Shown: positions 1 to 16,222 of the stretch, piece after piece
Position numbering within the stretch: the first letter of the stretch is position 1
How the letters are laid out: each line of letters begins with the position of its first letter
Virus record (IMG/VR): IMGVR_UViG_3300011439_000040
Span: 1-26,851 of that record
Direction: 5' to 3' (one strand)
From: a virus
Taxonomy: Duplodnaviria > Caudoviricetes
DNA: 26,851 nucleotides
Position numbers and translations under genes: made by a program
The notes under the pieces: model-generated
Databases searched by the model: none
What the model saw: the letters and a program-made list of their open reading frames with translations, nothing else
Told to the model about the DNA's origin: nothing

Positions 1-1
1 C

Positions 2-721: not shown

Positions 722-935
722 GGTCCCCCACCCCAGCGCCCTTCTCTGGTCGGAGGGTACGCCCCGCCCCGCTTAGATACCCCTTCTCGACCAGAGCTTT
801 GAGGTGCTGTTGCACCGTTGCTGTTGATGCGTACCCGAGGATCTCGCAGATCTGCCTGACCGTCGGCGGGTACCCGTTGTCATCGATGAACTCGGCCACG
901 CAGTCGAGGACGCGCTGCTGCGAATCGGTGATCAC
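711..935 (-). CDS. LexA-type winged-helix DNA-binding domain protein (no peptidase domain)
   Basis: MITDSQQRVLDCVAEFIDDNGYPPTVRQICEILGYASTATVQQHLKALVEKGYL matches the LexA N-terminus. GGAGG SD; the GTG start overlaps the upstream TGA. Confidence 0.85.
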   Translation of the reverse strand: MITDSQQRVLDCVAEFIDDNGYPPTVRQICEILGYASTATVQQHLKALVEKGYLSGAGRTLRPEKGAGVGDPSD

Positions 936-1669
936 GATGCTGCCACCTCCCTGATGTCGGCGATGAACTCGGTCCGGTGCTGCATCGCCCAGGCGAGGAC
1001 GGCGACCATCGTGTGGTAGCGGACGAGGCGCTGGGTCACGTCGGTGCCGAAGCCCAGCACCACGGCGAACTGCTCGATCCACTCGTCAAGCACGTCCGCT
1101 CCGACCTCGGCGTCGTCCGGCACGATCAGGGTGTACGTCTTCGAGCCACGCTTGTGGCCCACCGCCCTCTTCACGGGCCGCGTGTAGCCGCAGGAGTCAC
1201 ACTGCTGGCCCGGCTCAAGGTCGAGGTGACCGTGGGCGGTGGAGCGTGTCTCCACCTTCTGTGCTGCGTGGACGGCACGGGTTGCCACCGGATCGACGGG
1301 TGCCTCCGACCAGGGCTGCGGGTGGAGCAGACCCTGATGGATCCAGCCTCCCTCCACGACGAGCGACTCGGCCTCCAGCCAGATGAACGTCTCGTCCGAC
1401 TCCAGTCGGATCATCGCCGCGTGTCCGCCGATCCCTCCGGTCACGTTGTTGTGGTGGCGCATGCACAGCCCGATGATGTTCGAGATCACCCGCCCCGACG
1501 GCAGCCGGACCCAGTCGTAGGGCTGGCCTCGCAGGAACGAGCGCGACCAGAGGTGGTGCCCCTGCTGGCTCAGGCTGATGCAGCCGGGGGCGCAGCAGGT
1601 TCTCTCGACCGGGCGAGGCTTGCCCTCGACGCCACGGATATCCGGGTGGACGGCGGGAGCGAGGGTCAC
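932..1669 (-). CDS. HNH-like endonuclease / Zn-binding protein
   Basis: CCAPGC..GHHLWSRS..NIIGLCMRHHNNV pattern plus CDSC; coupled to both neighbours by overlaps. Confidence 0.6.
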   Translation of the reverse strand: MTLAPAVHPDIRGVEGKPRPVERTCCAPGCISLSQQGHHLWSRSFLRGQPYDWVRLPSGRVISNIIGLCMRHHNNVTGGIGGHAAMIRLESDETFIWLEAESLVVEGGWIHQGLLHPQPWSEAPVDPVATRAVHAAQKVETRSTAHGHLDLEPGQQCDSCGYTRPVKRAVGHKRGSKTYTLIVPDDAEVGADVLDEWIEQFAVVLGFGTDVTQRLVRYHTMVAVLAWAMQHRTEFIADIREVAAS

Positions 1670-1857
1670 CGGATCAGCCCCTGACGCAGCGCCAGCGCCA
1701 CCGCCTGGGTGGTGGTGACCGCGCCGAGCTTCTCCCTCACGCTCTTGGTGTGGGTCTTCACCGTGTGAGGCGAGATGCCGAGGTGCCAGGCTGCGCCCTT
1801 CGCACTACCGTGGTCGGCGACCGCCTGCAGGGCCTTCGCTTCGGAGGGCAGGATCAC
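1666..1857 (-). CDS. LuxR-type HTH stand-alone regulator
   Basis: AWHLGISPHTVKTHTKSVREKLGAVTTTQAVALALRQGLI is a typical LuxR/GerE C-terminal domain. Confidence 0.9.
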   Translation of the reverse strand: MILPSEAKALQAVADHGSAKGAAWHLGISPHTVKTHTKSVREKLGAVTTTQAVALALRQGLIR

Positions 1858-2048
1858 CGCAAGCTCCGCAGTTGATTGAGGACGGCGAGCGAGGAGAGCA
1901 GGAAGACGAGCGCGAAGATCCCCAACACCGGGGAGGTGAAGATCGTCCCGAGCAGGGAGCAGAGGGTGAGCAGGACGAGGATGATCAGCACCACCGTGAG
2001 GTGGGTGATCTCGCCCAGGTTCTCCGCTCCGTAGTCGTCGTCACTCAC
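1854..2048 (-). CDS. Small membrane protein (2 TM)
   Basis: Two long hydrophobic stretches; overlaps both neighbours. Confidence 0.75.
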   Translation of the reverse strand: MSDDDYGAENLGEITHLTVVLIILVLLTLCSLLGTIFTSPVLGIFALVFLLSSLAVLNQLRSLR

Positions 2049-2271
2049 TGGGTGGGACCTTCCGCGAGAACCCCATCGGTCCGTCCATGCCGGGACCGCC
2101 CATCGGGATCGAGGTGATGGCTACGCCGTCACCCTGGAAGGTGGACTCGGGCATCGTCTGGAGGATCTCCAGCGCGGACTTGACCACCTCGACGCGCTGG
2201 TCGGGTGGGCACTCCAGCGACACCGAGGTGTGACCCACCGTGCGCTGGACGTAGATCCGAACCTTGCTCAT
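2041..2271 (-). CDS. Hypothetical protein (76 aa, MSKVRIYVQR...)
   Basis: TGATG coupling with the upstream gene; GGAG SD. Confidence 0.65.
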   Translation of the reverse strand: MSKVRIYVQRTVGHTSVSLECPPDQRVEVVKSALEILQTMPESTFQGDGVAITSIPMGGPGMDGPMGFSRKVPPSE

Positions 2272-2474
2272 CAGAACTCCACGTCCATCTCGTCGATGGG
2301 GCGAGGGGTGATGCCGCGCATCGCCGCCTCCTTCAGGATCTCGTCGCAGCGCGGGACGTTGACCTCGGGACCACCCTCGATCAGCCCGTACAGCCGAGCG
2401 GACTCGACGGCGAGCATGAAGTAGGCAGCGTCGGCTGCCTCCTGCCACTCGGCGGGGGTTGTCGGATCGTTCAT
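2271..2474 (-). CDS. Hypothetical protein (67 aa)
   Basis: AAGGTGAG SD, ATGA overlap, typical codon usage. Confidence 0.7.
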   Translation of the reverse strand: MNDPTTPAEWQEAADAAYFMLAVESARLYGLIEGGPEVNVPRCDEILKEAAMRGITPRPIDEMDVEF

Positions 2475-3427
2475 AGCTCACCTTCCATAGCGGGACAGAC
2501 CTTGCGCCAACCGCAGTTGGTGCAGGGGCTGAAGGACATCGACCAGTCCGCGAACCTACCCATCGTCGGCCACGTCTCGTCGGGACCGTAGGTCGTGTAC
2601 ATCCAGGCGATCATGTTCGCGATCTGGGCTGCGGACTTGATCACGTTCTCGGTCTTCACCTCGTTCGGCGTGAAGACCATGTCCGGGGACTCAAGCCCGG
2701 TCGTGATCTTCGGCGTCTTCGCACGGGAGATCGAGTGATACTCGACAGGCAGGCTGGTCATCGCCGAGTAGAGCGTGGCCTGCAGCATCCACGACGGCTT
2801 CAGCTTCGAGACGGACTGCTTGCCCGTCTTCGTGTCGATCACCCGGTCCGGCACCCAGATGTCCTCTCCTCCCCCTTCGAGGTCGGCATCCAGGTAGCCC
2901 GTCCGCACGTCGATGTAGCCGAGGATCGGCACAACCAGGCGCGGGTCACGGATGTACAACTCCTCTTCGAGGGCGAGAGGCTGGAGCCGGGGCACCACGT
3001 CTTCGTGGTAGCGGATCAGGATCCGCTCGGCGTCGAGCCGCATCGTGTCCACTCCCTTGACAGCGTCACCGCTGTCCCAGGAGATCTCGTCTGCACCGCC
3101 CTGCTCTTCGAGGACCTTCGGGATACCCACGTCCTGCAGGTACTCGACCACCTCGGCGGTCGGTCGGTCCACGTGGCTCTCGATCTTCTGGGCGTAGTTG
3201 AACTCGACCCCTTCGTGGAAGGCGGAGCCGATCACCAGTCCTTCACCAGGCCGCTCCTTCTCGCCGAGGATGTAGCGGTGGCGGAACTGCTCGGGGCAGC
3301 GGCGGAACATGCCGATGCTCGTCGCGCTCAGGTGGCGGATCCTGTCCGGCCACCCGAGCGCAGACGGAGCTTCCTCGGGCGGGGCCACGGAGGCAACCCC
3401 ACCCAGGAACTGTTCGAGGCTGCTCAT
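2471..3427 (-). CDS. PD-(D/E)xK exonuclease, RecB/AddB/Cas4-like with probable Fe-S cysteine staple
   Basis: HLSATSIGMFRRCPEQF, GSAFHE, GYID..IDTKTG, QATLY, C-terminal CTNCGWRKVC. Start taken at MSSLEQ (ATGA overlap). Confidence 0.85.
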   Translation of the reverse strand: MSSLEQFLGGVASVAPPEEAPSALGWPDRIRHLSATSIGMFRRCPEQFRHRYILGEKERPGEGLVIGSAFHEGVEFNYAQKIESHVDRPTAEVVEYLQDVGIPKVLEEQGGADEISWDSGDAVKGVDTMRLDAERILIRYHEDVVPRLQPLALEEELYIRDPRLVVPILGYIDVRTGYLDADLEGGGEDIWVPDRVIDTKTGKQSVSKLKPSWMLQATLYSAMTSLPVEYHSISRAKTPKITTGLESPDMVFTPNEVKTENVIKSAAQIANMIAWMYTTYGPDETWPTMGRFADWSMSFSPCTNCGWRKVCPAMEGEL

Positions 3428-3639
3428 GCTGCAGCCCCAATCTGACTGCGGAGCCAGCGCACCGCATCCTCGGAGCCGAGGCCGACGGTGGCCTCCGGGG
3501 CGTTGGACTTGATCGTCCAGTCCCCCCTCGTCCCGAGCTTGCGGAGACGCTCGATGGCTTCGCTGCACTGGTCGCAGCAGGACTCCAGCCCGAGGCTGAT
3601 CGCCCTGTCTCTGATCTCGACTGCTTCTCCTACGGTCAT
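3424..3639 (-). CDS. Hypothetical protein (71 aa, CCDQC)
   Basis: ACACGGAGGT RBS at 3645-3654. Confidence 0.75.
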   Translation of the reverse strand: MTVGEAVEIRDRAISLGLESCCDQCSEAIERLRKLGTRGDWTIKSNAPEATVGLGSEDAVRWLRSQIGAAA

Positions 3640-3752
3640 GGCTTACCTCCGTGTTTGGACTTGGCCTTGCACTTGTCACAGAAGGGCGGCTTCGCCGGGT
3701 CAGCGCTCGGCTCGCAGCGGTTGTAACAGTGGGCGTTAGAGCAGACGGTCAC
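3636..3752 (-). CDS. 38-aa Zn-finger mini-protein (not in ORF track)
   Basis: MTVCSNAHCYNRCEPSADPAKPPFCDKCKAKSKHGGKP; GTGA overlap at its start and ATGA overlap at its stop fill the gap exactly. Confidence 0.7.
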   Translation of the reverse strand: MTVCSNAHCYNRCEPSADPAKPPFCDKCKAKSKHGGKP

Positions 3753-4003
3753 GCCGCCACTTCGTACTGGAAGTGGTCATCGACCAGCAGCACCTCGCAC
3801 TGCATGTCGGCCTTCGACTTCCCGCTCCTGGTCGAGTACTGAGTGCGGTCGTACCAGCGAGCGCCAGCACCCCGCGCCTGGAGCGCCTCGACCAGACCCT
3901 CGTTGCGCGTCATCACCAGCACGACCGTGCGGTCACGCATGTAGGTGAGGAAGTCCACCTTCGGCGAGGACTGAAGCTGCGCGACGAACTCCTCCTTCGT
4001 CAT
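3749..4003 (-). CDS. Hypothetical protein (84 aa)
   Basis: TGATG coupling with the ssb-like gene. Confidence 0.7.
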   Translation of the reverse strand: MTKEEFVAQLQSSPKVDFLTYMRDRTVVLVMTRNEGLVEALQARGAGARWYDRTQYSTRSGKSKADMQCEVLLVDDHFQYEVAA

Positions 4004-4737
4004 CAGAACGGGATGTCGTCGTCACCGGGGGGCTGGCTGTAGCCGTAGTCGGCGGGGTTCTCGTACCCCTGTGCCTGCTGCTGCTGCGGCTGGGCCTCGG
4101 CAGCCTGGTGCTGCTGCTGTCCCTGCGGCTGCGGCGGCTGCACCGGGTTGACGTTCCACTGCACCCCGGAGTCGAAGTACTTGACGAGTTGCTCCGAGAT
4201 CGCAACCAGGGAGGCGAGGTTCTGCTGGTCGGGCTGCAGGTACTGCAGCAACTGGACCGACACCTTGGCTGCAGCCTGGCGGTGGATCTGCTTGGTGCGG
4301 AGATCCTCGGTCGGTTGCACTTGCGGAACCTGCTGCATGACAGGCTGCTGCTGCACGGGCTGCGGCTGGAACGACTGCGGCTGCATCACCGGGGTCGTCA
4401 CAGGCTGCGGCGACTGGATCGGCTGCGGCGGCATGAACTGCTGCGGCTGGATCTGGGTCGGCGCACCGACGAGATCCACCTGTCCGAAGGCGAGCGCCTC
4501 CAGGTAGCGGTTGGTGTACGGCTGCCCGTTGTGCGGGTTGATGTTCGTGGAGTCCTGCTCGTTGTAGCCAGCGGTCACGACCTGCCCCATCATCTGCTGG
4601 GCGAGGCCGATCAACTCCTGCCGCTTGGTCGAGAGCTTCGTCGGATGCTCCCTGCCCTGGGCGTGGATGGCGACGGCTACCCAGCCGCCATTGCGTTGCT
4701 CAAGACCAGTGATGGTCCCGATGATCTGCTGATCCAT
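4003..4737 (-). CDS. ssb: Single-stranded DNA-binding protein-like, with Q/P-rich linkers
   Basis: Beta-rich N-terminus, acidic C-terminal tip PGDDDIPF, near the exonuclease; ACACGGAGGA RBS. Confidence 0.7.
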   Translation of the reverse strand: MDQQIIGTITGLEQRNGGWVAVAIHAQGREHPTKLSTKRQELIGLAQQMMGQVVTAGYNEQDSTNINPHNGQPYTNRYLEALAFGQVDLVGAPTQIQPQQFMPPQPIQSPQPVTTPVMQPQSFQPQPVQQQPVMQQVPQVQPTEDLRTKQIHRQAAAKVSVQLLQYLQPDQQNLASLVAISEQLVKYFDSGVQWNVNPVQPPQPQGQQQHQAAEAQPQQQQAQGYENPADYGYSQPPGDDDIPF

Positions 4738-4738
4738 G

Positions 4739-5368
4739 TCACTCCTCCGTGTTGGTGGTGTCCGGCATTGTACCGAACAACTGTGCGGCTTGCACTGGCG
4801 CGGGTAGGCGTGGGCCTCCCGCGTACGTCCGGTTGAACCTGTTCAGGTACTCGCTCACGATTGCCACCTGTGCCTGGTTGCAGTCCGGGCACGGGGCGTA
4901 CACGTCGTGGCCGTGCCGCTCGGGGATGTACTTCGAGGGGTCGGTCAGCCACTCCGCTGGCGGCTTCGCCTTCGGCTTCTTCGCTGTCTCTGCCATCCAC
5001 GCCGTCAGTGTCGGCTGGCGGTAGCCAGCATGGACGACGCGCAGCCCATCGCACGTCGTGCAGTAGGCGCGGTCGTGGGTGACGTAGGTGGTCGGCGCGG
5101 TCTGCGCCTCCAGCATCCCGTCGAGGTTCGGCCAGTGCTTGGCGAGGGCGGTGGGCGTGAGCAGCGCACCGTCCATCACCTTACGGTACGTGTTGGCCTT
5201 GGCCTCGATGACGAGAGCAAGCTCTCCGTCGTCCAGGTCGGTCGTCGCCGAGCGGATGTCGGCGAGGGCCTTGTTCAGTGCGCCTCGGGCGGTCGGCGTC
5301 AGTGCGGTGATGTCGATCCCGCACACCTCGGCCAGCTTCTCGAAGCTGAGATCACGTTCACGGGCCAA
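4739..5368 (-). CDS. Hypothetical protein, possible replication initiator (helical domain + CxxC..CxxC)
   Basis: TPTALAKHWPNL, CTTC, CPDC; adjacent to ssb. Function inferred from position only. Confidence 0.55.
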   Translation of the reverse strand: MARERDLSFEKLAEVCGIDITALTPTARGALNKALADIRSATTDLDDGELALVIEAKANTYRKVMDGALLTPTALAKHWPNLDGMLEAQTAPTTYVTHDRAYCTTCDGLRVVHAGYRQPTLTAWMAETAKKPKAKPPAEWLTDPSKYIPERHGHDVYAPCPDCNQAQVAIVSEYLNRFNRTYAGGPRLPAPVQAAQLFGTMPDTTNTEE

Positions 5369-5561
5369 AGAGATCCCCCTGTCCTGTTGAGCCGCTGTAC
5401 TTGCGGCGGGTGTGGCACTGCTCGCACATCACGGTCCCGGTCAGAGTGCGGTCGAAGACCGTTCCCTTCCCGCCCTTCGACCAGCCGATGATCTCCCACC
5501 AGCCTTCGGCGTCACGCTCGATCACGTTGCCGCACTGCGCGTAGTTGACGCAGCGGGTCAT
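5358..5561 (-). CDS. Zn-finger protein (67 aa)
   Basis: MTRCVNYAQC...MCEQCH; ATGA overlap at the start. Confidence 0.7.
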   Translation of the reverse strand: MTRCVNYAQCGNVIERDAEGWWEIIGWSKGGKGTVFDRTLTGTVMCEQCHTRRKYSGSTGQGDLFGP

Positions 5562-5980
5562 CGGTGATCGTTCAGGCCGAAGCGGCCCTCCACCTGGATC
5601 GGCTGCTTCACCTTCAGCTTGATCGCGTCGAGCCTCTCCTCGGCGTACTCCTCGCCGAAGATGTGGACGAGCATCGACTCGTAGCGGGTGCCGTGGTTCT
5701 CCCAGCCGAGCAGCCACACCCCCTCACGCCCCTTCACGTCACCCGCTGCGAGCAGCGGCATCGTGGTCGGGTCGTACTCGTTGGCGAGGAAGAGGTAGAT
5801 CTCCGACGCTGCGCCGGGACCCCAGAGATCCTCATCGATCTGGAATCCCTCGATGGGCATGTCCTCCATCCGAGAGGTGAACCCCTCGGGAACGGCGTAG
5901 CTCGGGTTCACCTCGACGGGCAGGCCGACCGGGTACTCGCGCCGCATCCGCTTGTCACGCCAGGCGTCGATGTTGCTCAT
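5558..5980 (-). CDS. Hypothetical protein (140 aa)
   Basis: ATGA overlaps on both sides; typical codon usage. Confidence 0.75.
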   Translation of the reverse strand: MSNIDAWRDKRMRREYPVGLPVEVNPSYAVPEGFTSRMEDMPIEGFQIDEDLWGPGAASEIYLFLANEYDPTTMPLLAAGDVKGREGVWLLGWENHGTRYESMLVHIFGEEYAEERLDAIKLKVKQPIQVEGRFGLNDHR

Positions 5981-6990
5981 CGGTCCCAGTTCCAGACCCG
6001 CTGCTTCACGATCAGGTCAAGGTCCTCTGGACCCTTGACGTACTCACCGATGTACTTCTGCTTGTGCCGTCCCTCGCTCGGGTACCACTGGTTGCGCCAG
6101 TGGCCGGACACGATCCAGCGGTGGGTGTACTCACGCGCTGATCCGTTCTCGCTCTGCTCGTCGCCCTCCTTGGCGGAGCGGCGGCGGCGAAGCTCGATCA
6201 CCCGCAAGATCGAGGGCGGCAGCTTGAACCGCTGCGCCTCCCGCCGGGCGGCACGTCCTGCCTGGCGAGGGTCGGACTGCACGATCTTCTCGGCCATGAG
6301 TTTCTGCATGACTCTCCAAAAGAGGAGCCAGCTTGCGTTGCGGTCGCCCTCGCCTGAGATCTCGCGCTCGTCCGACATGTAGCGGAGCGGGATCGCCGTC
6401 GCATGCGCGATCCCCCACTGGAACGCGAACCGCTCCGGGTTGCGAAGCTCGGCGGTCAACTCCGGGTTCTCGTCGGTGAAGTCGTCGTCGTCCCAGACCC
6501 ACGACGCCTGCATGAAGCGGACGCCAGCCTCTGGCTCGCCCTCCATCGAGAGGTCGTAGGTGTAGCCGATGGGACCGGACTCGTCGTTGACGAACTTGAC
6601 CATCGGGTCGATGGTCTTCCAGTACAGGATCCGCCAGCCCACGCTCTTGCCGTTGATGTCCGCCGACAGGAACGGGTGAGGCAGGACGAGGAAACCGTCC
6701 TTCAGGAAGATGTCATCGAGCAGGATCGGCTCGGTCGGGTCGAACCCGTACATCGCCTTCTGGCACAGGTCCATCATCTCGGTCGTCATCCAGAGGATGT
6801 CGGTGTTGACCGCGTCGATGGCCGCGTGTTGGAACGCGACCCACGACGGCATCGCTGCCGTCTCTCCGTACTTGTTGTCCCGGTCGGTCAGCCAGGCATT
6901 CATCATCCCCTTGAAGTCGGGGTGGCGGACGAACTTCACGTAGTCCGTGTGCGCGTAGACCGCGTCGTCGTACGTCTCGAACTTCAGCAT
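5977..6990 (-). CDS. Conserved phage protein with C-terminal VxGHWR motif
   Basis: HRWIVSGHWRNQWYPS..YIGEYVKGP resembles a recurrent phage protein family of unknown function; ACACGGAGGA RBS. Confidence 0.8.
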   Translation of the reverse strand: MLKFETYDDAVYAHTDYVKFVRHPDFKGMMNAWLTDRDNKYGETAAMPSWVAFQHAAIDAVNTDILWMTTEMMDLCQKAMYGFDPTEPILLDDIFLKDGFLVLPHPFLSADINGKSVGWRILYWKTIDPMVKFVNDESGPIGYTYDLSMEGEPEAGVRFMQASWVWDDDDFTDENPELTAELRNPERFAFQWGIAHATAIPLRYMSDEREISGEGDRNASWLLFWRVMQKLMAEKIVQSDPRQAGRAARREAQRFKLPPSILRVIELRRRRSAKEGDEQSENGSAREYTHRWIVSGHWRNQWYPSEGRHKQKYIGEYVKGPEDLDLIVKQRVWNWDR

Positions 6991-7004
6991 TCCTTCCTCC
7001 GTGT

Positions 7005-7280
7005 TGTGGTCTTCGATCCATGATTCATGGATCGTGGATCGTGGTACGGGTGTCTTTCCCTGGTAAGGATCGGGGGCTAGAGGCTATAGCTCCAGCGTCC
7101 AAGGTCTAGAGGTGGTTCCCAGGCTCTTACTCGAATGATCCCCTCTTGCAGTCCGGGGCACTCGCGGTGACGCTTGCGCTCCGCTTGCCAGATCCCTTCC
7201 TGCTCACCCGCTCATCGGTGTCCTTGAGTTGCGGGATCCAACCGATCATCCAAACCTCGACTCGGCTCTCGCTGGAGATG
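7005..7280 (-). ncRNA. Candidate long structured 5' leader (leader C)
   Basis: Shares GGATGATC..GATCCCG (7232-7251) and TGGCAAGCGG (7181-7190) with elements A/B. Same operator abuts a candidate -10. 10-bp perfect inverted repeat at 7014-7034. Confidence 0.4.
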
Positions 7281-7284
7281 TCAG

Positions 7285-7314
7285 ATGGTGGCTGCCAGTT
7301 GCTCCTCCCGTCGA
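7285..7314 (-). promoter_or_regulatory. Candidate leftward promoter with operator GCAACTGGCAGC
   Basis: TCGACG-N18-CACCAT; the 12-mer at 7291-7302 is identical to 16229-16240 and has the same register against the -10. Confidence 0.45.
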
Positions 7315-7330
7315 GTAACGACGGGGCTTG

Positions 7331-7339
7331 TGGCATACT
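7331..7339 (+). promoter_or_regulatory. Candidate extended -10 (TGG-CATACT) for a rightward sRNA
   Basis: TGn-CATACT flanked by inverted repeats 7320-7326/7342-7348 and 7307-7313/7319-7325. Confidence 0.45.
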
Positions 7340-7345
7340 CACCCC

Positions 7346-7420
7346 GTCCTTGATCAGCGTCTCGGACATTAGCACGAAGGCCCAGTCTTCACCTCCGTGT
7401 GGCTGGGCCTTCGTCGTTCA
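7346..7420 (+). ncRNA. Candidate trans-acting antisense sRNA with anti-RBS loop
   Basis: Perfect 12-bp stem 7374-7385/7403-7414 plus 2 more pairs. The 13-nt loop UUCACCUCCGUGU is complementary to the ACACGGAGG(UG) RBS motif. Confidence 0.55.
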
Positions 7421-7807
7421 TCGCTTGAGTCGGAGCAGAGCTTCGCTCCCTCGCTTCGCTCCCGTCTCCTCGACCACGTCCACGAAGTCGGAGACTCGGC
7501 GACGGATCGACTCGACCCGCGCTCGCTCCGCCCTCCCGTCGGGACGCACCCGCCCGTAGATCACGATCTCCGCGATCTCGGCTCGGGTGAATCCCTCCGG
7601 GTGGTTCGGTTCATTCGCCTTGATGGCGTCGAAGACGAGCTTGCGGTCACCCTTCAGGTCCACCGTGAACGCGGCCTCATGGGAGGTGGCGGGGTCGGTC
7701 GGCCTGACGATCTTCGAGGGGTCGGGCCTGCGCCCGGATCCCATGCAGTACTGGCAGATGTCGCCTTCGCGCACACCTGTCCCGCCGCACTGGCCGCAAT
7801 CACCCAC
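7418..7807 (-). CDS. DnaJ-type Zn-finger repeats + probable winged-helix protein
   Basis: CGQCGGTG..CQYCMGSG, then RPTDPATSHEAA and FTRAEIAE..IRRRVSDF. Confidence 0.75.
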   Translation of the reverse strand: MGDCGQCGGTGVREGDICQYCMGSGRRPDPSKIVRPTDPATSHEAAFTVDLKGDRKLVFDAIKANEPNHPEGFTRAEIAEIVIYGRVRPDGRAERARVESIRRRVSDFVDVVEETGAKRGSEALLRLKR

Positions 7808-7994
7808 GATGCACCTCCCGTTCCGCCGCCCTCCGGGCGAGGTCGGTCCAGCCCCGCACCTCTCGGTGCCGAGCGTGGAACCTGATCACGTGCTGGATCA
7901 GGTCGTCGGGTGGGCGAGGGACATCCTTCCCCTCGGCCCACTCGATGACCCAGCGGCGGTCCTTACACGGTTGGCAAGGACAGTCGTCCGCCAT
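7800..7994 (-). CDS. Hypothetical protein (64 aa, CPCQPC)
   Basis: AGGAAGGGG SD; overlaps neighbours. Confidence 0.6.
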   Translation of the reverse strand: MADDCPCQPCKDRRWVIEWAEGKDVPRPPDDLIQHVIRFHARHREVRGWTDLARRAAEREVHRG

Positions 7995-8415
7995 CGATCA
8001 CCCCTTCCTGCTCCAGCCTGTCGGCCAGGGCGTAGATGTCCTCTTCGAGGTCGGCTGTCACTCTCGCAGCGCAGGTCGAGATCGAGCGCTGCCCGATCCC
8101 GTGCTTGCCTGCGTAGCGGTAGGCCAGCATGGCCTCCAGCCCTGCGTACTGGTTGATCCGACGGTCGTCGGTTGGCAGGTACGAGGGAGCCGCCATCGCC
8201 ACCAGCACCGCGAAGGGATCCGTATCGAGGCAGTCCTCTTCGAGGAGACAGATGGGCGAGCGGACGGGTATCCCCCGTACCAAGCCGGGGTACAACTGAG
8301 CGCAGTAGCGCGGGACCTTCGTCCACCCCTTCACCTGGAGCCGACGCACTGTCAGTCCCAGGTGGAGGGCGACGGAGGCGTGGGTAGCCTCATGGATCGC
8401 GGTCGGGCTAGGCAC
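7963..8415 (-). CDS. HEXXH metallopeptidase, M41(FtsH)-like stand-alone domain
   Basis: TAIHEATHASVALHLG resembles FtsH TAYHEAGHA; C-terminal IYALADRLEQEGVIDG also resembles M41. Start approximate. Confidence 0.6.
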   Translation of the reverse strand: MPSPTAIHEATHASVALHLGLTVRRLQVKGWTKVPRYCAQLYPGLVRGIPVRSPICLLEEDCLDTDPFAVLVAMAAPSYLPTDDRRINQYAGLEAMLAYRYAGKHGIGQRSISTCAARVTADLEEDIYALADRLEQEGVIDGGRLSLPTV

Positions 8416-8596
8416 CAAGCCTCTGGCTGAGGTCGTGAAGCTGGACGTGCTTCGTCCTGATCTTCGAGCGGACGCTCGCCGACAGCGTCGAGTCCTGCGA
8501 ATCCTTCTTCGCCGACTCGCCTGCCTGGACGACCGCCTCGCGTACGAGGTCGAACTCGACCGGGTTGAGCTTGATCGTGACCGTAGCTTCGGCCAT
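8408..8596 (-). CDS. Hypothetical protein (62 aa, MAEATVTIKL...)
   Basis: ACACGGAGGT RBS at 8606-8615. Confidence 0.75.
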   Translation of the reverse strand: MAEATVTIKLNPVEFDLVREAVVQAGESAKKDSQDSTLSASVRSKIRTKHVQLHDLSQRLGA

Positions 8597-8637
8597 AGAT
8601 CTGACACCTCCGTGTCGTTGATGGTGCAGAACCAGCA

Positions 8638-8668
8638 GCACCTGGCGAGGGGAGCAAGCTCCCCCACC
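8638..8668 (-). repeat. Intergenic hairpin element GGTG-GGGGAGCTTGCTCCCC-TCGCC (copy 1)
   Basis: Near-identical to 10744-10777. Confidence 0.8.
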
Positions 8669-8670
8669 AG

Positions 8671-8817
8671 CTACTTCCGCTTCTTCGCTCGCGCCCGGCA
8701 TGCCTCCATGCCGATGCAGTAGCGGTTGCCCGTGAACCGGGAGTACACGTACTGGCCCTCCCGCACCCTCTTACCGCAGAGGGCGCAGGAGTAGCCAGCC
8801 TTCGGCTTGGCAGCCAC
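8671..8817 (-). CDS. 48-aa basic Zn-finger mini-protein (not in ORF track)
   Basis: MAAKPKAGYSCALCGKRVREGQYVYSRFTGNRYCIGMEACRARAKKRK; starts 1 nt after the upstream stop. Confidence 0.7.
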   Translation of the reverse strand: MAAKPKAGYSCALCGKRVREGQYVYSRFTGNRYCIGMEACRARAKKRK

Positions 8818-8818
8818 G

Positions 8819-9925
8819 CTACTTCACCGCCAGAGCGACCTTCTCCCACGACTTCTCGGGCATCTGAGCGAGGGACCAACCGAGGCCCTCGATCTCCGCC
8901 TGACGGTCGAAGGACTCGACCGTCTTCGCGGCTGCCGTGAAGGCGTTGAGCATGCCCCACTGACCCTTGCCGATCCCGTTGGGATCCGCAGCGAGGGAGA
9001 GCATGACCGCCTCTTCCTCGGCCTCGGAGAGGCTGAACTCCTTCGCCAGCACCTTCGTCGCAGCCACCGGGCTGACGACCTCGATGCCGGACAGGCCCTG
9101 AAGCTGGTCCACGACCGTGTTGAACGCGGCCTCGGAACAGGTGTGACGGAGCGTGTCCCGAGCGGCGAGCCAGAAGGCGACATCGTCCGCCGCCAGGGCC
9201 TCGTTCGAGAGGACTCCCTCGTCCTCGCGCTTGCCAACGTGGCGAGCGTTGAGGGCCTTCGTCGTCGTCATCCCGTTGGTGCAGATGAGGACGAGCATGA
9301 ACCCGGAGATGGTCAGGGAACCTGCCCCGATCTCGGAGTTCTTGATCTCGACGCCCCACCGGACGGTGTCGCCGACCGACTTCACGTCCCGCTCCAGAGC
9401 GGGGAACAGTGCCCGGATGTACAGGCGCTGCTCGGTGACGGCAGCCTGGTGGAACTGCACCTCGGTGCCGAGGTTGTCGAACTCGGGGAGCAGGGTCCGG
9501 GCGATCTCGATGTGATCGAGACGGCGGAAGCGGTCGGACATCCAGCCGCGTCCCGTCATGTTCCCGGTCGGGTTCGTGTAGCCCCGGATCATGCGAGCCT
9601 TCGGCTCGTTCATCATCCAGTGCCGCACGTTCTCCTCGAAGAGGCCAGGTGCATCGACCTTCATCCGGTCGAAGTACCGCTTCGGGATCCCCAGATCAGT
9701 GCTGATCTGGCCCTGCATGTGATCCGTGAGGTTGAAGTAGCGAAGCTCGTCGCCCGGCGTGTCGAGCGCAAGCTCGACTTCCTTGGTGACCGAGCCGTCG
9801 TTCCTCGGGACATCCACGACCGAGACGCCCATCGAGCGGGTGTCTGCGATCACGTCGTACTTGCGGCGGTCTTCCGCCACGATCCTCGACATCAGCGCGT
9901 CGAGGCTCTCGACTGTGCGAGTCAT
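8819..9925 (-). CDS. DUF932-like protein
   Basis: VGDTVRWGVEIKNSEIGAGSL..LICTNGM..RHVG and QWGMLNAFTA are characteristic of this family; ACACGGAGGT RBS. Confidence 0.75.
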   Translation of the reverse strand: MTRTVESLDALMSRIVAEDRRKYDVIADTRSMGVSVVDVPRNDGSVTKEVELALDTPGDELRYFNLTDHMQGQISTDLGIPKRYFDRMKVDAPGLFEENVRHWMMNEPKARMIRGYTNPTGNMTGRGWMSDRFRRLDHIEIARTLLPEFDNLGTEVQFHQAAVTEQRLYIRALFPALERDVKSVGDTVRWGVEIKNSEIGAGSLTISGFMLVLICTNGMTTTKALNARHVGKREDEGVLSNEALAADDVAFWLAARDTLRHTCSEAAFNTVVDQLQGLSGIEVVSPVAATKVLAKEFSLSEAEEEAVMLSLAADPNGIGKGQWGMLNAFTAAAKTVESFDRQAEIEGLGWSLAQMPEKSWEKVALAVK

Positions 9926-10182
9926 GCTGGTGTTACCTCCGTGTTCGTCGTGCGTTGGACGGCTCTCTGAGCCGCTGGTGTCTGAAGAATGGCGAGCTTG
10001 TCCCAGAAGGCGTAGCCTCGCTCCAGCTTCAGGATCGGCTCGGGCAGCGAACCCCGAGCCACTGCGTCGAAGACGCTCTGCGGGTTCCGGTAGCCCATCA
10101 CCTCGGCTACCTGGAACGAGTCGAGCAGGCGGTCCTTGACCGCCTCCGCAAACTTGGTCGTACTGATTGGCCTTGGGGCCAT
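9922..10182 (-). CDS. AlpA/excisionase-like HTH regulator
   Basis: LLDSFQVAEVMGYRNPQSVFDAVARGSLPEPI..FW; AAGGAG SD. Confidence 0.75.
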   Translation of the reverse strand: MAPRPISTTKFAEAVKDRLLDSFQVAEVMGYRNPQSVFDAVARGSLPEPILKLERGYAFWDKLAILQTPAAQRAVQRTTNTEVTPA

Positions 10183-10231
10183 ACTCCTTCCCTTCGTCGT
10201 CGGGTCAGTGCTGAACATCCGCACTGGGCAA

Positions 10232-10266
10232 CTGCCATCTTACCAGATGGCAGCACCCACTGTCGG
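10232..10266 (-). promoter_or_regulatory. Extended -10 promoter (TGG-TAAGAT) buried in palindromic operator CTGCCATCT-N4-AGATGGCAG
   Basis: 9-bp perfect inverted repeat at 10232-10253; the 12-mer at 10243-10254 is the reverse complement of 11699-11710. Confidence 0.65.
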
Positions 10267-10271
10267 ACGTA

Positions 10272-10700
10272 CTAGGCCGGGACCTCGGTCTTCGACCGTT
10301 CGACATGCCTTCGGAACTCGACGGCGCTGTCATCCAGTTTGCGAGTCACGTGCCGCTTCAAGAAGCTGGTGCGCGACTCGTCCTTGAACGATGCGTTCGT
10401 GGACAGGCCGATGTGAGCGATCACGTCTTCCTTCGTGATCGGCATGTCGCCGTCCTGGTTGCGGAGCGAAGCTCCGTAGAGGTCCTCGACCAGTGCGATC
10501 CTGGCCCAGACCTCGGCGGCGTTGTCCTCCGTGATGCGCCCGATACCCGTGTTGAGCGAGTGCCAGATCAGCGCGGTCGTGACGGGGTTCCAGAGCTTGT
10601 CGCCCTTCTTCGTCCCGTCCGAAGGCCAGTCCTGCGTGGCGATCACAGTCGTGACCGTCTCGTAGTCCTTCACATCCTTCACTGACCAAGTCAGTGCCAT
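10272..10700 (-). CDS. Hypothetical phage protein (142 aa)
   Basis: ACACGGAGGT RBS in hairpin CATCAC-ACGGAG-GTGATG. Confidence 0.8.
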   Translation of the reverse strand: MALTWSVKDVKDYETVTTVIATQDWPSDGTKKGDKLWNPVTTALIWHSLNTGIGRITEDNAAEVWARIALVEDLYGASLRNQDGDMPITKEDVIAHIGLSTNASFKDESRTSFLKRHVTRKLDDSAVEFRRHVERSKTEVPA

Positions 10701-10743
10701 GCGTCATCACCTCCGTGTGATGTTGGGTGATGCGAGACGTACC

Positions 10744-10777
10744 GCACCGGGCGAGGGGGAGCAAGCTCCCCCCACCC
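10744..10777 (-). repeat. Intergenic hairpin element (copy 2 of 8638-8668)
   Basis: GGTG-GGGGGAGCTTGCTCCCCC-TCGCC. Confidence 0.8.
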
Positions 10778-10789
10778 GCTGTCGGACGG

Positions 10790-11335
10790 CTAGTTGTCCT
10801 CGTCCTCCGGGTCCGGGTTGGCCGGGGCAGCAGCGAGGTTCACAAGACCCTCGATCCGCTGCGACTGCTCTTCGAGCCGCGCCTCCAGGCTGGAGACACG
10901 GGACCCGAGGGTGTCCACGGCGTCGAGAACGACGATGGCGGCGCGAGCGATCTCGCCCCACTCCTCGTCCTCCCGCTTCGTCCCGGCGAACTCCCCGAGC
11001 GTGATGAGAGCCTCGCTGAAAGACGGAAGCTCCGTCTCGACCTGCTCGACCGAGTAGCTCACGTCCTCGAAGACCCAGGTGAAGCTGTTCTGGTCCTCGA
11101 CCTCGTTGCCATCGGAGATGGCCTCGCGAGCCTTCTCCTCCGCCTCGTCCTCGTCGTCCGCCTCGATGACGAGGAGGACCTCGCCTCCAGAGGAGGAGAT
11201 CTCCTCGGACGACCAGTACGAGTCGTCGCTCTCGACGGTCACGCCGTCCACGTCGTTGATCTCGCGCTCGATGTTGCCATCGAACTCGATGGACGTGCCG
11301 AGTGAGAACGTGACGTTCACGTTGTACTTGGGCAT
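10790..11335 (-). CDS. Highly acidic protein, candidate DNA mimic
   Basis: About 48 D/E vs about 10 K/R in 181 aa (manual count); RBS in hairpin GACAC-ACGGAG-GTGTC. Confidence 0.75.
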   Translation of the reverse strand: MPKYNVNVTFSLGTSIEFDGNIEREINDVDGVTVESDDSYWSSEEISSSGGEVLLVIEADDEDEAEEKAREAISDGNEVEDQNSFTWVFEDVSYSVEQVETELPSFSEALITLGEFAGTKREDEEWGEIARAAIVVLDAVDTLGSRVSSLEARLEEQSQRIEGLVNLAAAPANPDPEDEDN

Positions 11336-11354
11336 GTAGCTGACACCTCCGTGT

Positions 11355-11686
11355 GTCGTCGTACGGAACCGTTATCGGCACCGTGGGCGAGGTCCGTTCG
11401 GAGCGGACCCCACCGATGGTGTCGCATAGGTTGAGTGGTTGGCAGCGTCCGGGCTTCCCCCGGCGGCTTCGTCACGACGTTGCCTCTCGCACCCCCTGCC
11501 TCTCCGCCTAGTTCGCTGGCCTACGCTGCCCCATGGCTCGGAGGAGGTGCGGTCGGCGATGCTGACCGTGACTCACTCGCTGCTGCAGACTCAAGGCTCG
11601 GGATCAGGCTGCTGGGATCATCCAGGGCCGGAACCGCTTGCCTCCTCCGCCGGAACCCCGTTCAATCGGGCCGACTTCGGTGCTGC
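11355..11686 (-). ncRNA. Large structured RNA / 5' leader, copy A
   Basis: Collinear 12-17 nt identical blocks shared with 15818-16216, compensatory changes, no credible ORF, upstream promoter. Confidence 0.75.
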
Positions 11687-11692
11687 CCCACC

Positions 11693-11762
11693 AATGTAGC
11701 TGCCATCTGGCCGTCGTCAAGCAGTCCGAACAGACTCCGAACAGGCCAGCAGCAAGCTGCTG
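11693..11762 (-). promoter_or_regulatory. Promoter A: TTGACG-N16-TACATT, operator CCAGATGGCAGC, upstream 11-bp-period direct repeat and hairpin
   Basis: TCCGAACAG at 11725-11733 and 11736-11744; hairpin at 11747-11762; same layout as promoter B. Confidence 0.7.
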
Positions 11763-11795
11763 AAGGTGCGGGTGAGTCGTGAAACGACCGCGCCC

Positions 11796-12119
11796 TCAGA
11801 CGCTCGCGTCGTGATCCGTGTGGACGTACACCTTGTCCGTGGCGCGGAGCATCAGGTCGAAGACCTGGCCCTTCTCGCCTCGAAGCTCGACCAGAATCCG
11901 CTTGCCGAAGCTCTCCTCGAAGAGGACGACGAAGCGCTCCCCACGACGATGGATGACATCCCCCCGCCGAAGGCGGTAGGCCGACTTGAAACCGCTCCAC
12001 CCGTCCATCGAGCATGGATCGCAGATCCATGACATCTCGTCCGGGTCGAGCATGTAGACCTCGCATCCGCAGATGCCGCAGGTCGAGAGGACTCCGTCCT
12101 CCACGTGCCCTTCGTGCAT
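11796..12119 (-). CDS. Zn-ribbon + beta-rich protein (107 aa)
   Basis: MHEGH..CGICGC..CDPC; ACACGGAGGT RBS at 12124-12133. Confidence 0.75.
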   Translation of the reverse strand: MHEGHVEDGVLSTCGICGCEVYMLDPDEMSWICDPCSMDGWSGFKSAYRLRRGDVIHRRGERFVVLFEESFGKRILVELRGEKGQVFDLMLRATDKVYVHTDHDASV

Positions 12120-12169
12120 GTGTACCTCCGTGTTTGTGGGACGACGGCGGGGCCTCGAAGGCCCCACCG

Positions 12170-12553
12170 TTATGCCACCCGCACGTCCTTCGGATCGAGC
12201 GCGGTGCAGTGGTTCCACCGCTGACCTTCGGTCTGGTGCGCTCCACCACCGGGGATGTCGCATTCCACCTCGACGCCGTACGGTCCATTCGGACCGATCA
12301 CCTTGTAGGTGCCGCCCCAGTAGTGCGACCAGTAGGTCGCCCCGATCACGTGACCCGTGGGAGCAAGCTCCTCCTCTTCACGATCAGAGATCGTGAACTG
12401 GATCGTAAGCTCCTCCGGGCTGCACTTCTCGAAGACGCCGGAATCCCAGCGGACTGAGATCAGTCCGCTCCGCAGCGTCCCCTCCACGGTGCCGAGGTGA
12501 CCACCTCGGGAGTCCTCGATGAGGACTCTCATGCCCCGCTCGAAGCCCCTCAC
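12170..12553 (-). CDS. Hypothetical protein, SH3-like beta barrel(s)
   Basis: GMRVLI..GTVEG..ISVRWDSG pattern; GTGA overlap. Confidence 0.65.
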   Translation of the reverse strand: MRGFERGMRVLIEDSRGGHLGTVEGTLRSGLISVRWDSGVFEKCSPEELTIQFTISDREEEELAPTGHVIGATYWSHYWGGTYKVIGPNGPYGVEVECDIPGGGAHQTEGQRWNHCTALDPKDVRVA

Positions 12554-12864
12554 GACCGCACCGCCGGGATCCGTTCGATCCGAATAGCCACTACGTGGCT
12601 GCCGAGGATCTCCTTCATCGCGGCGATCTCGTCCAGCATGTCTTCGAGGTCCATCTCATGCACGTCGCTGGAAGCGACGACCTTCCCGAAGAAGCCGTAC
12701 TCACCCTGGACACCGTTATCGACGTAGTCGATCCGGGTCACGATGCTGCGGTCGGCGACGAAGTCGCAGTAGGACTCGAACTCCTCGCAGCCGCACTCAG
12801 GGCAGTGGTCACTGCCCTGGCGGTGAGTGCCGCAGTGGCAGTGAGTCCATGTGTGCTTGCCCAT
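12550..12864 (-). CDS. Zn-binding hypothetical protein (104 aa)
   Basis: CHCGTH..HCPECGC; ACACGGAGGT RBS at 12870-12879. Confidence 0.75.
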   Translation of the reverse strand: MGKHTWTHCHCGTHRQGSDHCPECGCEEFESYCDFVADRSIVTRIDYVDNGVQGEYGFFGKVVASSDVHEMDLEDMLDEIAAMKEILGSHVVAIRIERIPAVRS

Positions 12865-12879
12865 CTCACACCTCCGTGT

Positions 12880-12940
12880 GATCCTCCGTTCCACCGGAAC
12901 GGAACGGCAGAGCCTCGAAGGCTCCACCGACCCCATCCGC
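12880..12940 (-). repeat. Two-hairpin intergenic cassette R1
   Basis: GCGGA..TCGGTG[hairpin]TGCCGT[CCGTTCC-GGT-GGAACGG]..ACACGGAGG. Confidence 0.85.
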
Positions 12941-13251
12941 TAGAGATCTACGATCTCGAAGTCAGCACCCTGCCGGGTCCTGAACGCCTTGATCGGCTTC
13001 AGCGCTGCCTTGTAGGCAGCGGGAGTGGCACGGTCGAGGTTCTCGCGAGCCTCCCACGTACCGTCGCCCTCGATCAACTCCTGCAGCTTCGCTGCAGCCC
13101 GGCAAGGCTTCGGCCAGTAGGCCCAGCCGTCCGAGTTTCGATTCGTCCACCGCTCCAGGTTCTGGAGCGTCTCCGTGGCGGGACCGAGGACCGGGTGAGC
13201 CGCGAAGCGGCTTCGTGCCTCCTCGATGTCCCAGGTGTTCATGAAGCGCAT
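12940..13251 (-). CDS. Hypothetical phage protein (MRFMNTWDIE..NSDGWAYWPKP)
   Basis: ACACGGAGGT RBS at 13257-13266. Confidence 0.8.
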   Translation of the reverse strand: MRFMNTWDIEEARSRFAAHPVLGPATETLQNLERWTNRNSDGWAYWPKPCRAAAKLQELIEGDGTWEARENLDRATPAAYKAALKPIKAFRTRQGADFEIVDL

Positions 13252-13266
13252 GCTGTACCTCCGTGT

Positions 13267-13324
13267 CATCCATTCCACCGGAATGGAACGGCAGCGGCTC
13301 GAAGCCGCCACCGACCCTGTCCGC
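13267..13324 (-). repeat. Two-hairpin intergenic cassette R2
   Basis: Same layout as R1 with compensatory changes (CCATTCC/GGAATGG; GCGGC/GCCGC). Confidence 0.85.
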
Positions 13325-13710
13325 TAGATCTCCTCTTCGAGGACCCCGGCCCACTGAAGAAGCTCGACATCCCCGTTGGGGATGAACATCGCCAGGCCCT
13401 GAAGCTCGGCGATCTCTCCGTAGGAGATGCTCTCGGCCTGGATCACGGAGCGAAGCTCCTCCAGCCGCTCGGGGATCGTCCCATCCCCTTCGGGGATGAT
13501 GATCTCCTTGCAGGCCATCAGGCCGCTTGCCAGCCGAGGGATGACGTAGTCATCCAGGGTCCAGCCAGCGTTGTCCTCGCCTCGAATCAGGACGACGAGT
13601 CGTCCTGTGCCGCCGTCGGGGAACCGATGTCCGTAGACCTCGTACCCGCTCGGCAAGTAGGCGGCGACTTCGTCGCTGCGCCTTGCTCCGCTCACTGCTG
13701 CATACCTCAT
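13324..13710 (-). CDS. Hypothetical phage protein (GEDNAGWTLDDYVIPRLASG)
   Basis: ACACGGAGGT RBS at 13716-13725. Confidence 0.8.
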   Translation of the reverse strand: MRYAAVSGARRSDEVAAYLPSGYEVYGHRFPDGGTGRLVVLIRGEDNAGWTLDDYVIPRLASGLMACKEIIIPEGDGTIPERLEELRSVIQAESISYGEIAELQGLAMFIPNGDVELLQWAGVLEEEI

Positions 13711-13725
13711 GTCCTACCTCCGTGT

Positions 13726-13783
13726 CCACCGTTCCACCGGAACGGCACGGCAGGGTCCAGAGGACCCCACCGAACCCATCCGC
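13726..13783 (-). repeat. Two-hairpin intergenic cassette R3
   Basis: Same layout; first hairpin GGGTCC-TCT-GGACCC. Confidence 0.85.
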
Positions 13784-13792
13784 CGGGTCGTT

Positions 13793-14566
13793 CTATCGAA
13801 CGAAGCCGCTCGTCCGATCCTGCCGGGCCTTGCCCTTAGCCTTCAGCCCGACGATGACCCCAGAGGGGTCAAGGAACCGAAGGTCTGACTTGTCACCGTC
13901 GAAGACGGGACGCCCCATGTACTCGCTCGGGACGCTGTGGAACACAGCGGCGACGTTGATCCCGTTCGCCAGGGCTACCGATGCCTTGGCATCGTTGTTC
14001 TCGGCGAGGGAGAACGTCAGCGAGTAGTTCGGGATGTCAGAGACATCCCGGTCGGGGTGCTTCGTGTAGTCGTAGAAGACCACATCGGGGTGACGCTCGA
14101 AGAGCGTCTGGCCCTCCAGCTTGATCGACTCCCAGCGAAGATCGCTGGTGCCGTTGAGCCGCACGGCAGGCTGAAAGCCTTTCCGCGCCGCTCTCCGCTT
14201 GTGGGTGGCGATCTCGGCGTCCAGCACCTGGAGGAACTCGTTCCTCCGAGCGAAGTACCACGCCGTCCTGAGACGGCGTTTCCTCTGGATCGCGTTGTCG
14301 GCTTCGCCCTTGGCGAAGATCCCGCCACGCCCTGCAGTGTTGAGACAGGCTGCTTCGCAGCCTGCCGTGGCGTTGCTGCAGACCTGAAAGCCAGAGGCTT
14401 TCGCCGGGGCCAGGTGCATGATGGCTGTAAGCCATCCGTCCTTCTCGCCCTTCTCGACCTTCTGATTCGTGGTCAACAGACCACGGATGGCACCGCCGAA
14501 GACCTCTTCGAGGTCGTACTCGACTCCACCAGCCGTCGCCAACCGCTGAAAGCGGTCAATGTCCAT
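13793..14566 (-). CDS. GP88-like protein (3-Cys, radical-SAM-like fold suspected)
   Basis: CSNATAGCEAACLNTAGRG, VRLNGTSD, FYDYTK, DGDKSDLRFLD, VGLKAKG. Start placed by spacing from the RBS at 14577-14585. Confidence 0.75.
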   Translation of the reverse strand: MDIDRFQRLATAGGVEYDLEEVFGGAIRGLLTTNQKVEKGEKDGWLTAIMHLAPAKASGFQVCSNATAGCEAACLNTAGRGGIFAKGEADNAIQRKRRLRTAWYFARRNEFLQVLDAEIATHKRRAARKGFQPAVRLNGTSDLRWESIKLEGQTLFERHPDVVFYDYTKHPDRDVSDIPNYSLTFSLAENNDAKASVALANGINVAAVFHSVPSEYMGRPVFDGDKSDLRFLDPSGVIVGLKAKGKARQDRTSGFVR

Positions 14567-14608
14567 ACGCACCATCCCTCCGTGTACACCGCTCCACTTG
14601 GAGCGGAA

Positions 14609-14758: not shown

Positions 14759-14795
14759 CTGACCCTCCTTCCTCCGTGTCGTGACCCCGAAGGGG

Positions 14796-15801: not shown

Positions 15802-15817
15802 GCTGCCTCCTCCGTGT

Positions 15818-16216: not shown

Positions 16217-16222
16217 GATGCC

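Follow-up and report, generated by a model that had tools for sequence, protein, structure and literature searches.

A Hairpin That Mirrors a Shared Ribosome-Binding-Site Tag Likely Specifies a Trans-Acting Antisense RNA in a Phage Family

Why should a phage carry a copy of its ribosome-binding-site (RBS) sequence at a place where no gene begins? The question is raised by the virus record IMGVR_UViG_3300011439_000040, a phage contig of 26,851 nucleotides (nt) that was analyzed over its full length, called the window here. Sixteen genes of the window are preceded by one short sequence, the tag, and a 17th copy of it lies in the loop of a strong hairpin at 7374-7414. A first-pass annotation, made without database searches, had proposed that this hairpin belongs to a rightward RNA complementary to the tag, and we followed the proposal through related phages. 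The comparison indicates that the locus is a real, conserved RNA element with a strand polarity, one that co-evolves with an RBS tag private to these phages, and we consider it likely that the locus gives rise to a trans-acting phage small RNA (sRNA) of about 70 to 100 nt that would block translation of the tagged early regulon.

RESULTS

One tag precedes 16 leftward genes and is mirrored in a hairpin loop

The sequence ACACGGAGG was found in 17 exact copies in the window, all of them on the minus strand, compared to a mean of 0.34 copies and a maximum of 3 in shuffled sequence. Sixteen of these copies sit 4 to 12 nt before an ATG in the leftward arm, which runs from about 18,800 to 700 and consists mostly of small genes without assigned function; the rightward arm carries the terminase. 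The tag is asymmetric, holds a Shine-Dalgarno (SD) core, and has a single orientation. In the window and two complete genomes of its own clade (G004 and G005), every exact tag was on the early-arm strand and none on the structural-arm strand; in G007, G009, and G010, one or two start-linked tags lay on the latter strand. Many tags have a hairpin immediately upstream. In the genome G001, a second common motif (CTCCAGG) and a hairpin stand ahead of each tagged gene (L056 5100-11600), forming a uniform cassette leader. Directly upstream of the window's GP88 tag, the minus strand has a small tRNA-like fold with a T-arm-like hairpin (14610-14662), which matched the Rfam mascRNA model weakly, at 34.7 bits where the gathering score is 42.5; ARAGORN called neither this fold nor any tRNA.

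The 17th copy (7392-7400) has no ATG, GTG, or TTG 2 to 14 nt downstream. The loop that contains it reads TTCACCTCCGTGT at 7388-7400, and its anti-SD core is part of the anti-SD given for Thermoleophilia and Acidimicrobiia in Table 1 of PMC10783764. The coordinates and letters that the annotation had given for this off-start copy, for the hairpin, and for an extended -10 sequence upstream of it (TGG-CATACT, 7331-7339) were confirmed. When the loop was paired with each of the 16 tags in turn, 9 to 12 contiguous bases matched, with duplex energies of -16.8 to -22.7 kcal/mol, and the 9- to 12-nt pairing that had been proposed for all 16 RBSs is now computed for every tag. The fold of 7345-7425 had a z of -5.8 on the plus strand and -4.3 on the minus strand. 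The loop, described earlier as unpaired, does form the tip of a strong hairpin, but a 3-base-pair (bp) mini-stem is predicted inside it, and the mean unpaired probability of the motif is 0.56. The predicted -10 sequence has C where the first T is usual, and transcription would begin at about 7346. One inverted repeat lies upstream of it and a second is centered on it (Table 1), and similar palindromes, read by eye, flank the -10 of another promoter-like site of the phage family. No Rfam match to the element was found in the window at E <= 1, nor in six loci of relatives at the gathering score.

A second conserved noncoding element of about 250 nt (window 7030-7285, minus strand) directly adjoins the predicted promoter and has counterparts at L053 13130-13385, L054 13280-13525, L092 8895-9200, and L056 13810-14060. 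It has a long-range closing stem, 21 of its 46 predicted pairs are changed on both sides, and no Rfam family matched it. An origin and a structured RNA in its own right are possible readings, and the element is retained even in G001, in which no seed (the off-start copy) is exposed.

In close relatives the loop is kept and the stem turns over

Complete relatives of the window's 65% GC phage (the window being the whole of a 26.9-kb contig) are about 48 kb long and carry SU10-type capsid, portal, and adaptor genes. Megablast with window 1-25000 gave no DNA-level match to cultured phages, and every protein match to cultured phages was below 60% identity. A search of sequencing runs with window 3400-13300 listed no RNA run that contains it, which counts neither for nor against transcription. 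Among the matches listed in a scan of genome contigs were three loci, one of them on a 6.4-kb contig of an Actinomycetota metagenome-assembled genome (53% protein identity), which weakly suggests Actinomycetota as the host phylum. Relatives with the same tag were gathered by scanning with two neighboring proteins, and 11 whole records were examined. A further scan with an alignment of the HExxH-motif protein encoded near the hairpin returned five loci, four already in the set and a fifth (L180) that was left out. The loop plus -10 pattern matched eight sites in viral contigs; two were known, and the other six were rejected as chance, since their contigs held no tag family. The window and four close relatives (L001, L002, L088, and L092) make up clade A, with five distinct elements.

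The loop was letter-for-letter identical in all five clade A elements, and the stems differed. Over ten ungapped stem pairs, 50 of 50 cells were paired and 7 of the 10 pairs were changed on both sides; none of 500 shuffles reached the observed compensation, and slid controls were 24 to 58% paired. A loop that varies on a conserved stem had been named in the annotation as the mark of a simple terminator, and the reverse was seen here. On the plus strand, GGCATACTC is invariant and is followed six bases later by G in 5/5, and the second stem pair is U-G in four of the five, a pair that would mismatch on the other strand. Minus-strand frames starting 15 to 24 nt after the loop motif were 82, 167, 19, 6, and 72 codons long. 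A leftward open reading frame (ORF) that uses the loop copy as its RBS was therefore rejected for clade A, since the downstream frame is not conserved, and the -10 is the better reading of the conserved stretch that contains the ATG.

In distant relatives seed and tag change together

Three further clades have tags of their own, ACACG[AG][AG]AGG in clade B, CGACAG[AG][AG]AGG in clade C, and AACG[AG]AAGG in clade D, which makes four tag types in all. One extra, structured copy of the genome's own tag (the seed) was found in the early arm of 8 of the 11 whole records; the three without it are G003, whose contig ends before the site, and G001 and G012, in which none is exposed. The extra copy always matched the tag type of its own genome. 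The element was no more than about 550 nt downstream of the HExxH gene in 13 loci from clades A, B, and C. Read antisense, the distant elements consist of a -10, a 5' hairpin with the seed in its 3' arm, a short linker, and a strong terminator-like hairpin. The display of the motif in a loop, as first described, applies only to the window's clade; in distant members the seed is part of a hairpin's 3' arm.

A curated set of 21 elements was used for the comparisons that follow; it replaced an automatic sorting into orphan, coding, and start-linked copies, which was too noisy in high-GC DNA. Outside the set are L118 and L137 (variant seeds, both with a -10), L131 and L093 (near-duplicates), L056/G001, L062, and G012 (no clear seed), G003 and L098 (contigs ending before the site), and L087 and L096 (loop-like hairpin within coding sequence). 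In a tree of the 368-amino-acid (aa) protein, clades A and B form separate groups and clade D is nested within clade C, which implies about three independent joint changes of seed and tag. The annotation had suggested checking whether the loop covaries with the RBS motif in related phages, and between lineages the two do change together. All 16 distant seeds are of the AAAGG variant, compared to 38 of their 111 tags, and AAAGG is absent from the tags of L108 (0/9), L134 (0/9), and L110 (0/6); the UUU complement of an AAAGG seed pairs with A and G variants alike. In a cross-pairing matrix, 21 of 21 seeds paired best within their own clade, a result not counted as independent evidence because the targets were picked by motif and the matrix is partly circular.

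Promoter and fold evidence favors the strand opposite the tags

An opposite-strand TAnnnT or CATACT 25 to 85 nt from the motif was present in all 21 elements, compared to 6 of the 168 start-linked tags and 403 of the 9238 background windows, a comparison that is in part circular (see below). TAnnnT alone was present in 16 of 16 distant members. In clade C, ACAG starts 6 to 7 nt after the -10 in 11/11 members, at what would be the 5' end of the RNA. GNRA and UNCG tetraloops in the elements were antisense in 14 cases and sense in 1, compared to 8 and 23, respectively, in the hairpins before ordinary tags, and the antisense strand folded more stably in 19 of 21 elements versus 79 of 153 controls. 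These four kinds of strand and promoter evidence point the same way. The rightward RNA complementary to the shared tag that was first proposed has now passed every comparative test run on the element (loop and stem, -10, polarity, and co-change) and stands as a prediction from sequence.

Table 1. Positions in the window of the hairpin element, its predicted promoter, adjoining frames, and the 16 start-linked tags
Feature	Position	Strand	Details
Main hairpin	7374-7414	+	14-bp stem, 7374-7387 with 7401-7414
13-nt loop UUCACCUCCGUGU	7388-7400	+	Complement of shared tag; holds anti-SD core UCACCUCC; invariant in 5/5 clade A
Predicted extended -10 (TGG-CATACT)	7331-7339	+	35 nt before stem; GGCATACTC invariant in 5/5 clade A, TG extension in 4/5
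Predicted small RNA	7346-7425	+	Start inferred at G7346, six bases past -10; 3' end uncertain
Weak 5' hairpin of predicted RNA	7346-7367	+	5' hairpin predicted in 5/5 clade A
Inverted repeat upstream of -10	7307-7325		Possible operator or cruciform; palindrome here in all five clade A members
Second inverted repeat, GACGGGG / CCCCGTC	7320-7348		Centered on -10; possible operator
129-aa ORF	7418-7807	-	Stop codon adjoins hairpin
Open frame, HExxH-motif protein	7963-8430	-	Synteny marker for element in three clades
Tag before ATG 3639 (71 aa)	3646-3654	-	10 bases pair with loop
Tag before ATG 4737 (244 aa)	4744-4752	-	9 bases pair with loop
Tag before ATG 6990 (337 aa)	6996-7004	-	9 bases pair with loop
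Tag before ATG 8596 (62 aa)	8607-8615	-	11 bases pair with loop
Tag before ATG 9925 (368 aa, phrog_1362)	9936-9944	-	10 bases pair with loop
Tag before ATG 10700 (142 aa)	10710-10718	-	12 bases pair with loop
Tag before ATG 11335 (181 aa)	11346-11354	-	11 bases pair with loop
Tag before ATG 12119 (107 aa)	12125-12133	-	10 bases pair with loop
Tag before ATG 12864 (104 aa)	12871-12879	-	11 bases pair with loop
Tag before ATG 13251 (103 aa)	13258-13266	-	10 bases pair with loop
Tag before ATG 13710 (128 aa)	13717-13725	-	10 bases pair with loop
Tag before ATG 14566 (257 aa, Pfam GP88)	14577-14585	-	9 bases pair with loop
Tag before ATG 14758 (29 aa)	14771-14779	-	9 bases pair with loop
Tag before ATG 15281 (161 aa)	15287-15295	-	10 bases pair with loop
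Tag before ATG 15801 (69 aa)	15809-15817	-	9 bases pair with loop
Tag before ATG 18813 (144 aa, DUF7694)	18818-18826	-	9 bases pair with loop

Alternative explanations

The same observations can be read in other ways, the most durable of which, unlikely as we hold it to be, is action in cis. Antisense transcription and pairing would then control only the neighboring message, either that of the gene behind the promoter or a read-through transcript, and the other matches would be a by-product of copying the nearest tag. In most members of clades B to D, the -10 does adjoin the next gene's tag. Within the RNA itself, a sense-like ACAG segment pairs with the seed, and on the other strand this could give alternative leader folds. 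In clade A, however, about 390 nt lie between the seed, which a loop displays, and the nearest tag downstream (7004 versus 7392). The fact that the seed in several genomes (L108, L134, and L110) is unlike the commonest tag variant fits one partner for all variants.

The first-pass annotation had itself offered a minus-strand decoy that titrates a protein. The minus strand would then be the functional one, with the tag bound by a host CsrA/RsmA-like or a phage-encoded protein and the hairpin acting as its decoy or high-affinity titrating site. This now appears improbable to a degree that leaves it well behind the RNA reading in our judgment. Tetraloops, G-U pairs, and the -10 all indicate the other strand, and a single site per element would be a poor sponge for 16 tags. 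The Rsm consensus (A/U)CANGGANG(U/A), as given in PMC4353343, is matched by 16 of the 17 window copies but not by the seeds of clades B to D. The minus strand also folds well, as its z shows, but no CsrA family gene was found in 5/5 complete relatives, a count that covers phage genomes only.

Very unlikely, too, is a terminator or an emptied gene cassette, that is, a hairpin and tag that have lost their gene and are kept tag-like by recombination. Terminators without U-tracts occur in high-GC hosts. A hairpin stands directly upstream of many tags, the one studied here adjoins the stop codon at 7418, and four extra copies retain a start codon. An invariant 13-nt loop on a changing stem is nevertheless not needed by a terminator, cassette hairpins show the opposite tetraloop polarity, no conserved frame follows the loop motif in clade A, and the opposite-strand -10 with its fixed spacing to the predicted first base would be left unexplained. 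Finally, despite the anti-SD core of the loop, noted above, and its pairing with an untagged strong site at 19415, we can give scarcely any credence to an RNA that pairs with RBSs mainly as a general shut-off of strong-SD host messages or as an adaptor aiding ribosomes on tagged phage messages, because initiation is normally blocked when an SD is covered and because the phage-specific extension changes along with the phage's own tags, which makes its own messages the selected targets.

Several points weigh against the trans-acting RNA. In the window, no U-tract was found 3' of the clade A hairpin and the site is absent from the terminator-scan list, which leaves the 3' end of the predicted RNA uncertain. 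The loop pairs with the untagged site of the rightward gene at 19415 at -16.1 kcal/mol, near the value of the weakest tag, and the fit of the window copies to the Rsm consensus belongs here as well. G001 (99% complete, 15 tags) and G012 (94%) carry tags without an exposed extra copy, and the syntenic place in G001 holds only a one-mismatch copy within a UUCG hairpin. The clade B to D seeds are mostly paired (mean unpaired probability, 0.14 to 0.68; below 0.45 in 15 of 16), so that strand displacement must be assumed for them, and the extra copies of G008, G009, L120, and L133 have a downstream start codon and an open frame. Tag types follow clades, with only about three independent changes, and the A>G bias between seed and fuzzy tag copies, the commonest substitution (77/193), is only suggestive because it falls in the SD stretch, where pairing with the 16S tail would allow the same changes. 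The 21/21 score of the -10 test is partly circular in that a -10 search was what first brought up 8 of the 21 elements, a listing partly filtered on the -10 supplied three more, and CATACT was admitted only after clade A had been seen; the whole-record listing and L110, L128, and L134, found by motif alone, are free of this circularity. Relatives were also treated as independent, and nominal significance is thereby overstated.

Other features of the phage family

Two long, diverged noncoding repeats (families D6, D10, and D12) lie in the leftward arm of the window at 11469-11758 and 15977-16289. One of them holds the only sigma-70-like promoter found in 1-14000, and they are possibly duplicated early leaders. 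At 18846-18860, overlapping divergent -10-like boxes, TATGCT on the plus strand and TAGCAT on the minus strand, lie between the tagged 144-aa gene and a short, leaderless-looking rightward ORF starting at 18860; comparable small genes with promoters were seen in L057, L121, and L140, and the boxes are a possible early/late switch. A conserved extended -10, often centered in an inverted repeat, was found at about 10230-10250 on the minus strand of the window and in many relatives. Across the family it precedes a small gene upstream of the 368-aa gene; the G004 homologue gave a weak HTH_17 match, and autoregulation is likely. G004 also has an ORF with an Acb2/Tad1 hairpin domain (L181 19546-19815), a possible anti-defense sponge protein.

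DISCUSSION

The answer that best accounts for the off-start copy is an RNA that would act on all of the tagged genes together. A host sigma-A-type promoter, possibly gated by the overlapping inverted repeats at 7307-7325 and 7320-7348, would make an RNA of 70 to 100 nt. Its anti-SD core would nucleate pairing on the tag in trans, the phage-specific extension of four or more bases would favor phage over host messages, and ribosome loading would fall on up to 16 early messages as a group; the expected outcome is repression rather than activation. In this way, early proteins would most likely be turned down in the course of the lytic cycle, and the inverted repeats over the promoter may serve to switch the RNA on or off. 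The annotation had left the choice between an early-to-late switch and immunity. A lytic timing or dosage brake is the more likely of these, because neither tyrosine integrase nor serine integrase/resolvase families were found in any of five complete relatives and the repressor-like matches in the leftward arm are only short DNA-binding domains, such as a LexA-type domain. Immunity is weakened by the lack of an integrase in these relatives, which may still undergo a plasmid-type lysogeny. No antirepressor family was found among the 43 window and 101 relative proteins scanned.

Antisense control of an RBS is already known, and the phage cases described have one target or a few; a literature search, largely at the title and abstract level, brought up no account of a phage RNA that targets an RBS tag common to several genes. 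If the proposal is true, a single RNA would govern a dozen or more targets tagged for the purpose, as a transcription factor governs its regulon, and phage development would be timed in a new way; the lineages would offer natural orthogonal tag/key pairs for multigene translational control in high-GC bacteria.

Comparable tags have been described as start-associated sequences (SAS) both in mycobacteriophages of cluster K (PMC3203893) and in cluster EF Microbacterium phages (PMC7302621). Their function was stated to be unknown still in 2024, with the choice of an RNA or a protein partner left open (PMC11373665), and the passages on SAS in these three papers describe no partner RNA. Cluster K SAS have a consensus sequence (PMC3203893) and ESAS inverted repeats; the repeats of cluster O are described as not start linked (PMC4351075). 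Like the tag studied here, SAS are over-conserved, asymmetric, SD-core motifs a few bases before mostly ATG starts, in one orientation and in a non-structural arm, and K1 phages also carry one copy without a gene start. The tag departs from the cluster K consensus (PMC3203893), however, in a comparison of the consensus alone, no search having been aimed at ESAS-like repeats, and the two are analogous rather than homologous; the phage here, with its SU10-type capsid and portal, is unrelated. The odd copy of the mycobacteriophage Adephagia is reversed, whereas ours is oriented like the tags, so that a complement of ours would have to be transcribed from a separate promoter on the opposite strand. 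A long hairpin on the gene strand of Adephagia (L214 30660-30715), which lies between genes 92 and 93, has the single reversed SAS as its loop. This interval is the one in which late transcription is reported to start (PMC11373665, section 19), a position taken here to the interval only. All six cluster K phages compared keep the forward tags, but the reversed site is intact in two, degenerate in two, and absent in two (intact in one, degenerate in two, and absent in two of the five more diverged phages besides Adephagia). This inconsistent pattern counts among the points against the proposal and makes Adephagia a lead rather than a general rule. We see the case as evenly balanced for a private translational regulon in the broader sense, in which one tag in early-gene RBSs and one co-evolving sRNA master key are jointly rewritten between lineages, insulating related phages from one another, and in which the same logic accounts for the SAS that cultured actinobacteriophages carry, a puzzle since 2011. 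It would be a concrete answer to what SAS do, and Adephagia on M. smegmatis is a ready system.

The c4 antisense RNA of P1 and P7 resembles the RNA predicted here in that it is phage encoded and trans acting, carries loop seeds, and blocks translation at an RBS, and its seed and target differ between related phages (PMC12197685). As described there, c4 controls an antirepressor message for immunity in temperate phages. The element here differs in having one seed for up to 16 dispersed targets, no Rfam match, and relatives without integrase. RNAIII and RsaE are bacterial sRNAs with C-rich anti-SD loops. RsaA of Staphylococcus aureus, LhrC of Listeria, and the alphaproteobacterial cuckoo RNAs (the last as described in PMC4615179) combine such loops with variable stems and several SD targets. 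These are host RNAs with a generic motif, in contrast to the lineage-specific seed extension found here, and the targets here share a near-invariant private tag that changes with the seed. The clade A tag resembles CsrA/RsmA sites in that it fits their consensus, as given in PMC4353343, and sits in the RBS. CsrB and RsmZ decoys, however, have many GGA-loop sites per RNA and the present elements have one, with opposite strand polarity, clade B to D seeds that do not fit, and no phage CsrA gene. In T4, RegB and RegA are each one phage factor that turns down many early messages at their RBSs; both are proteins, whereas the factor predicted here is an RNA.
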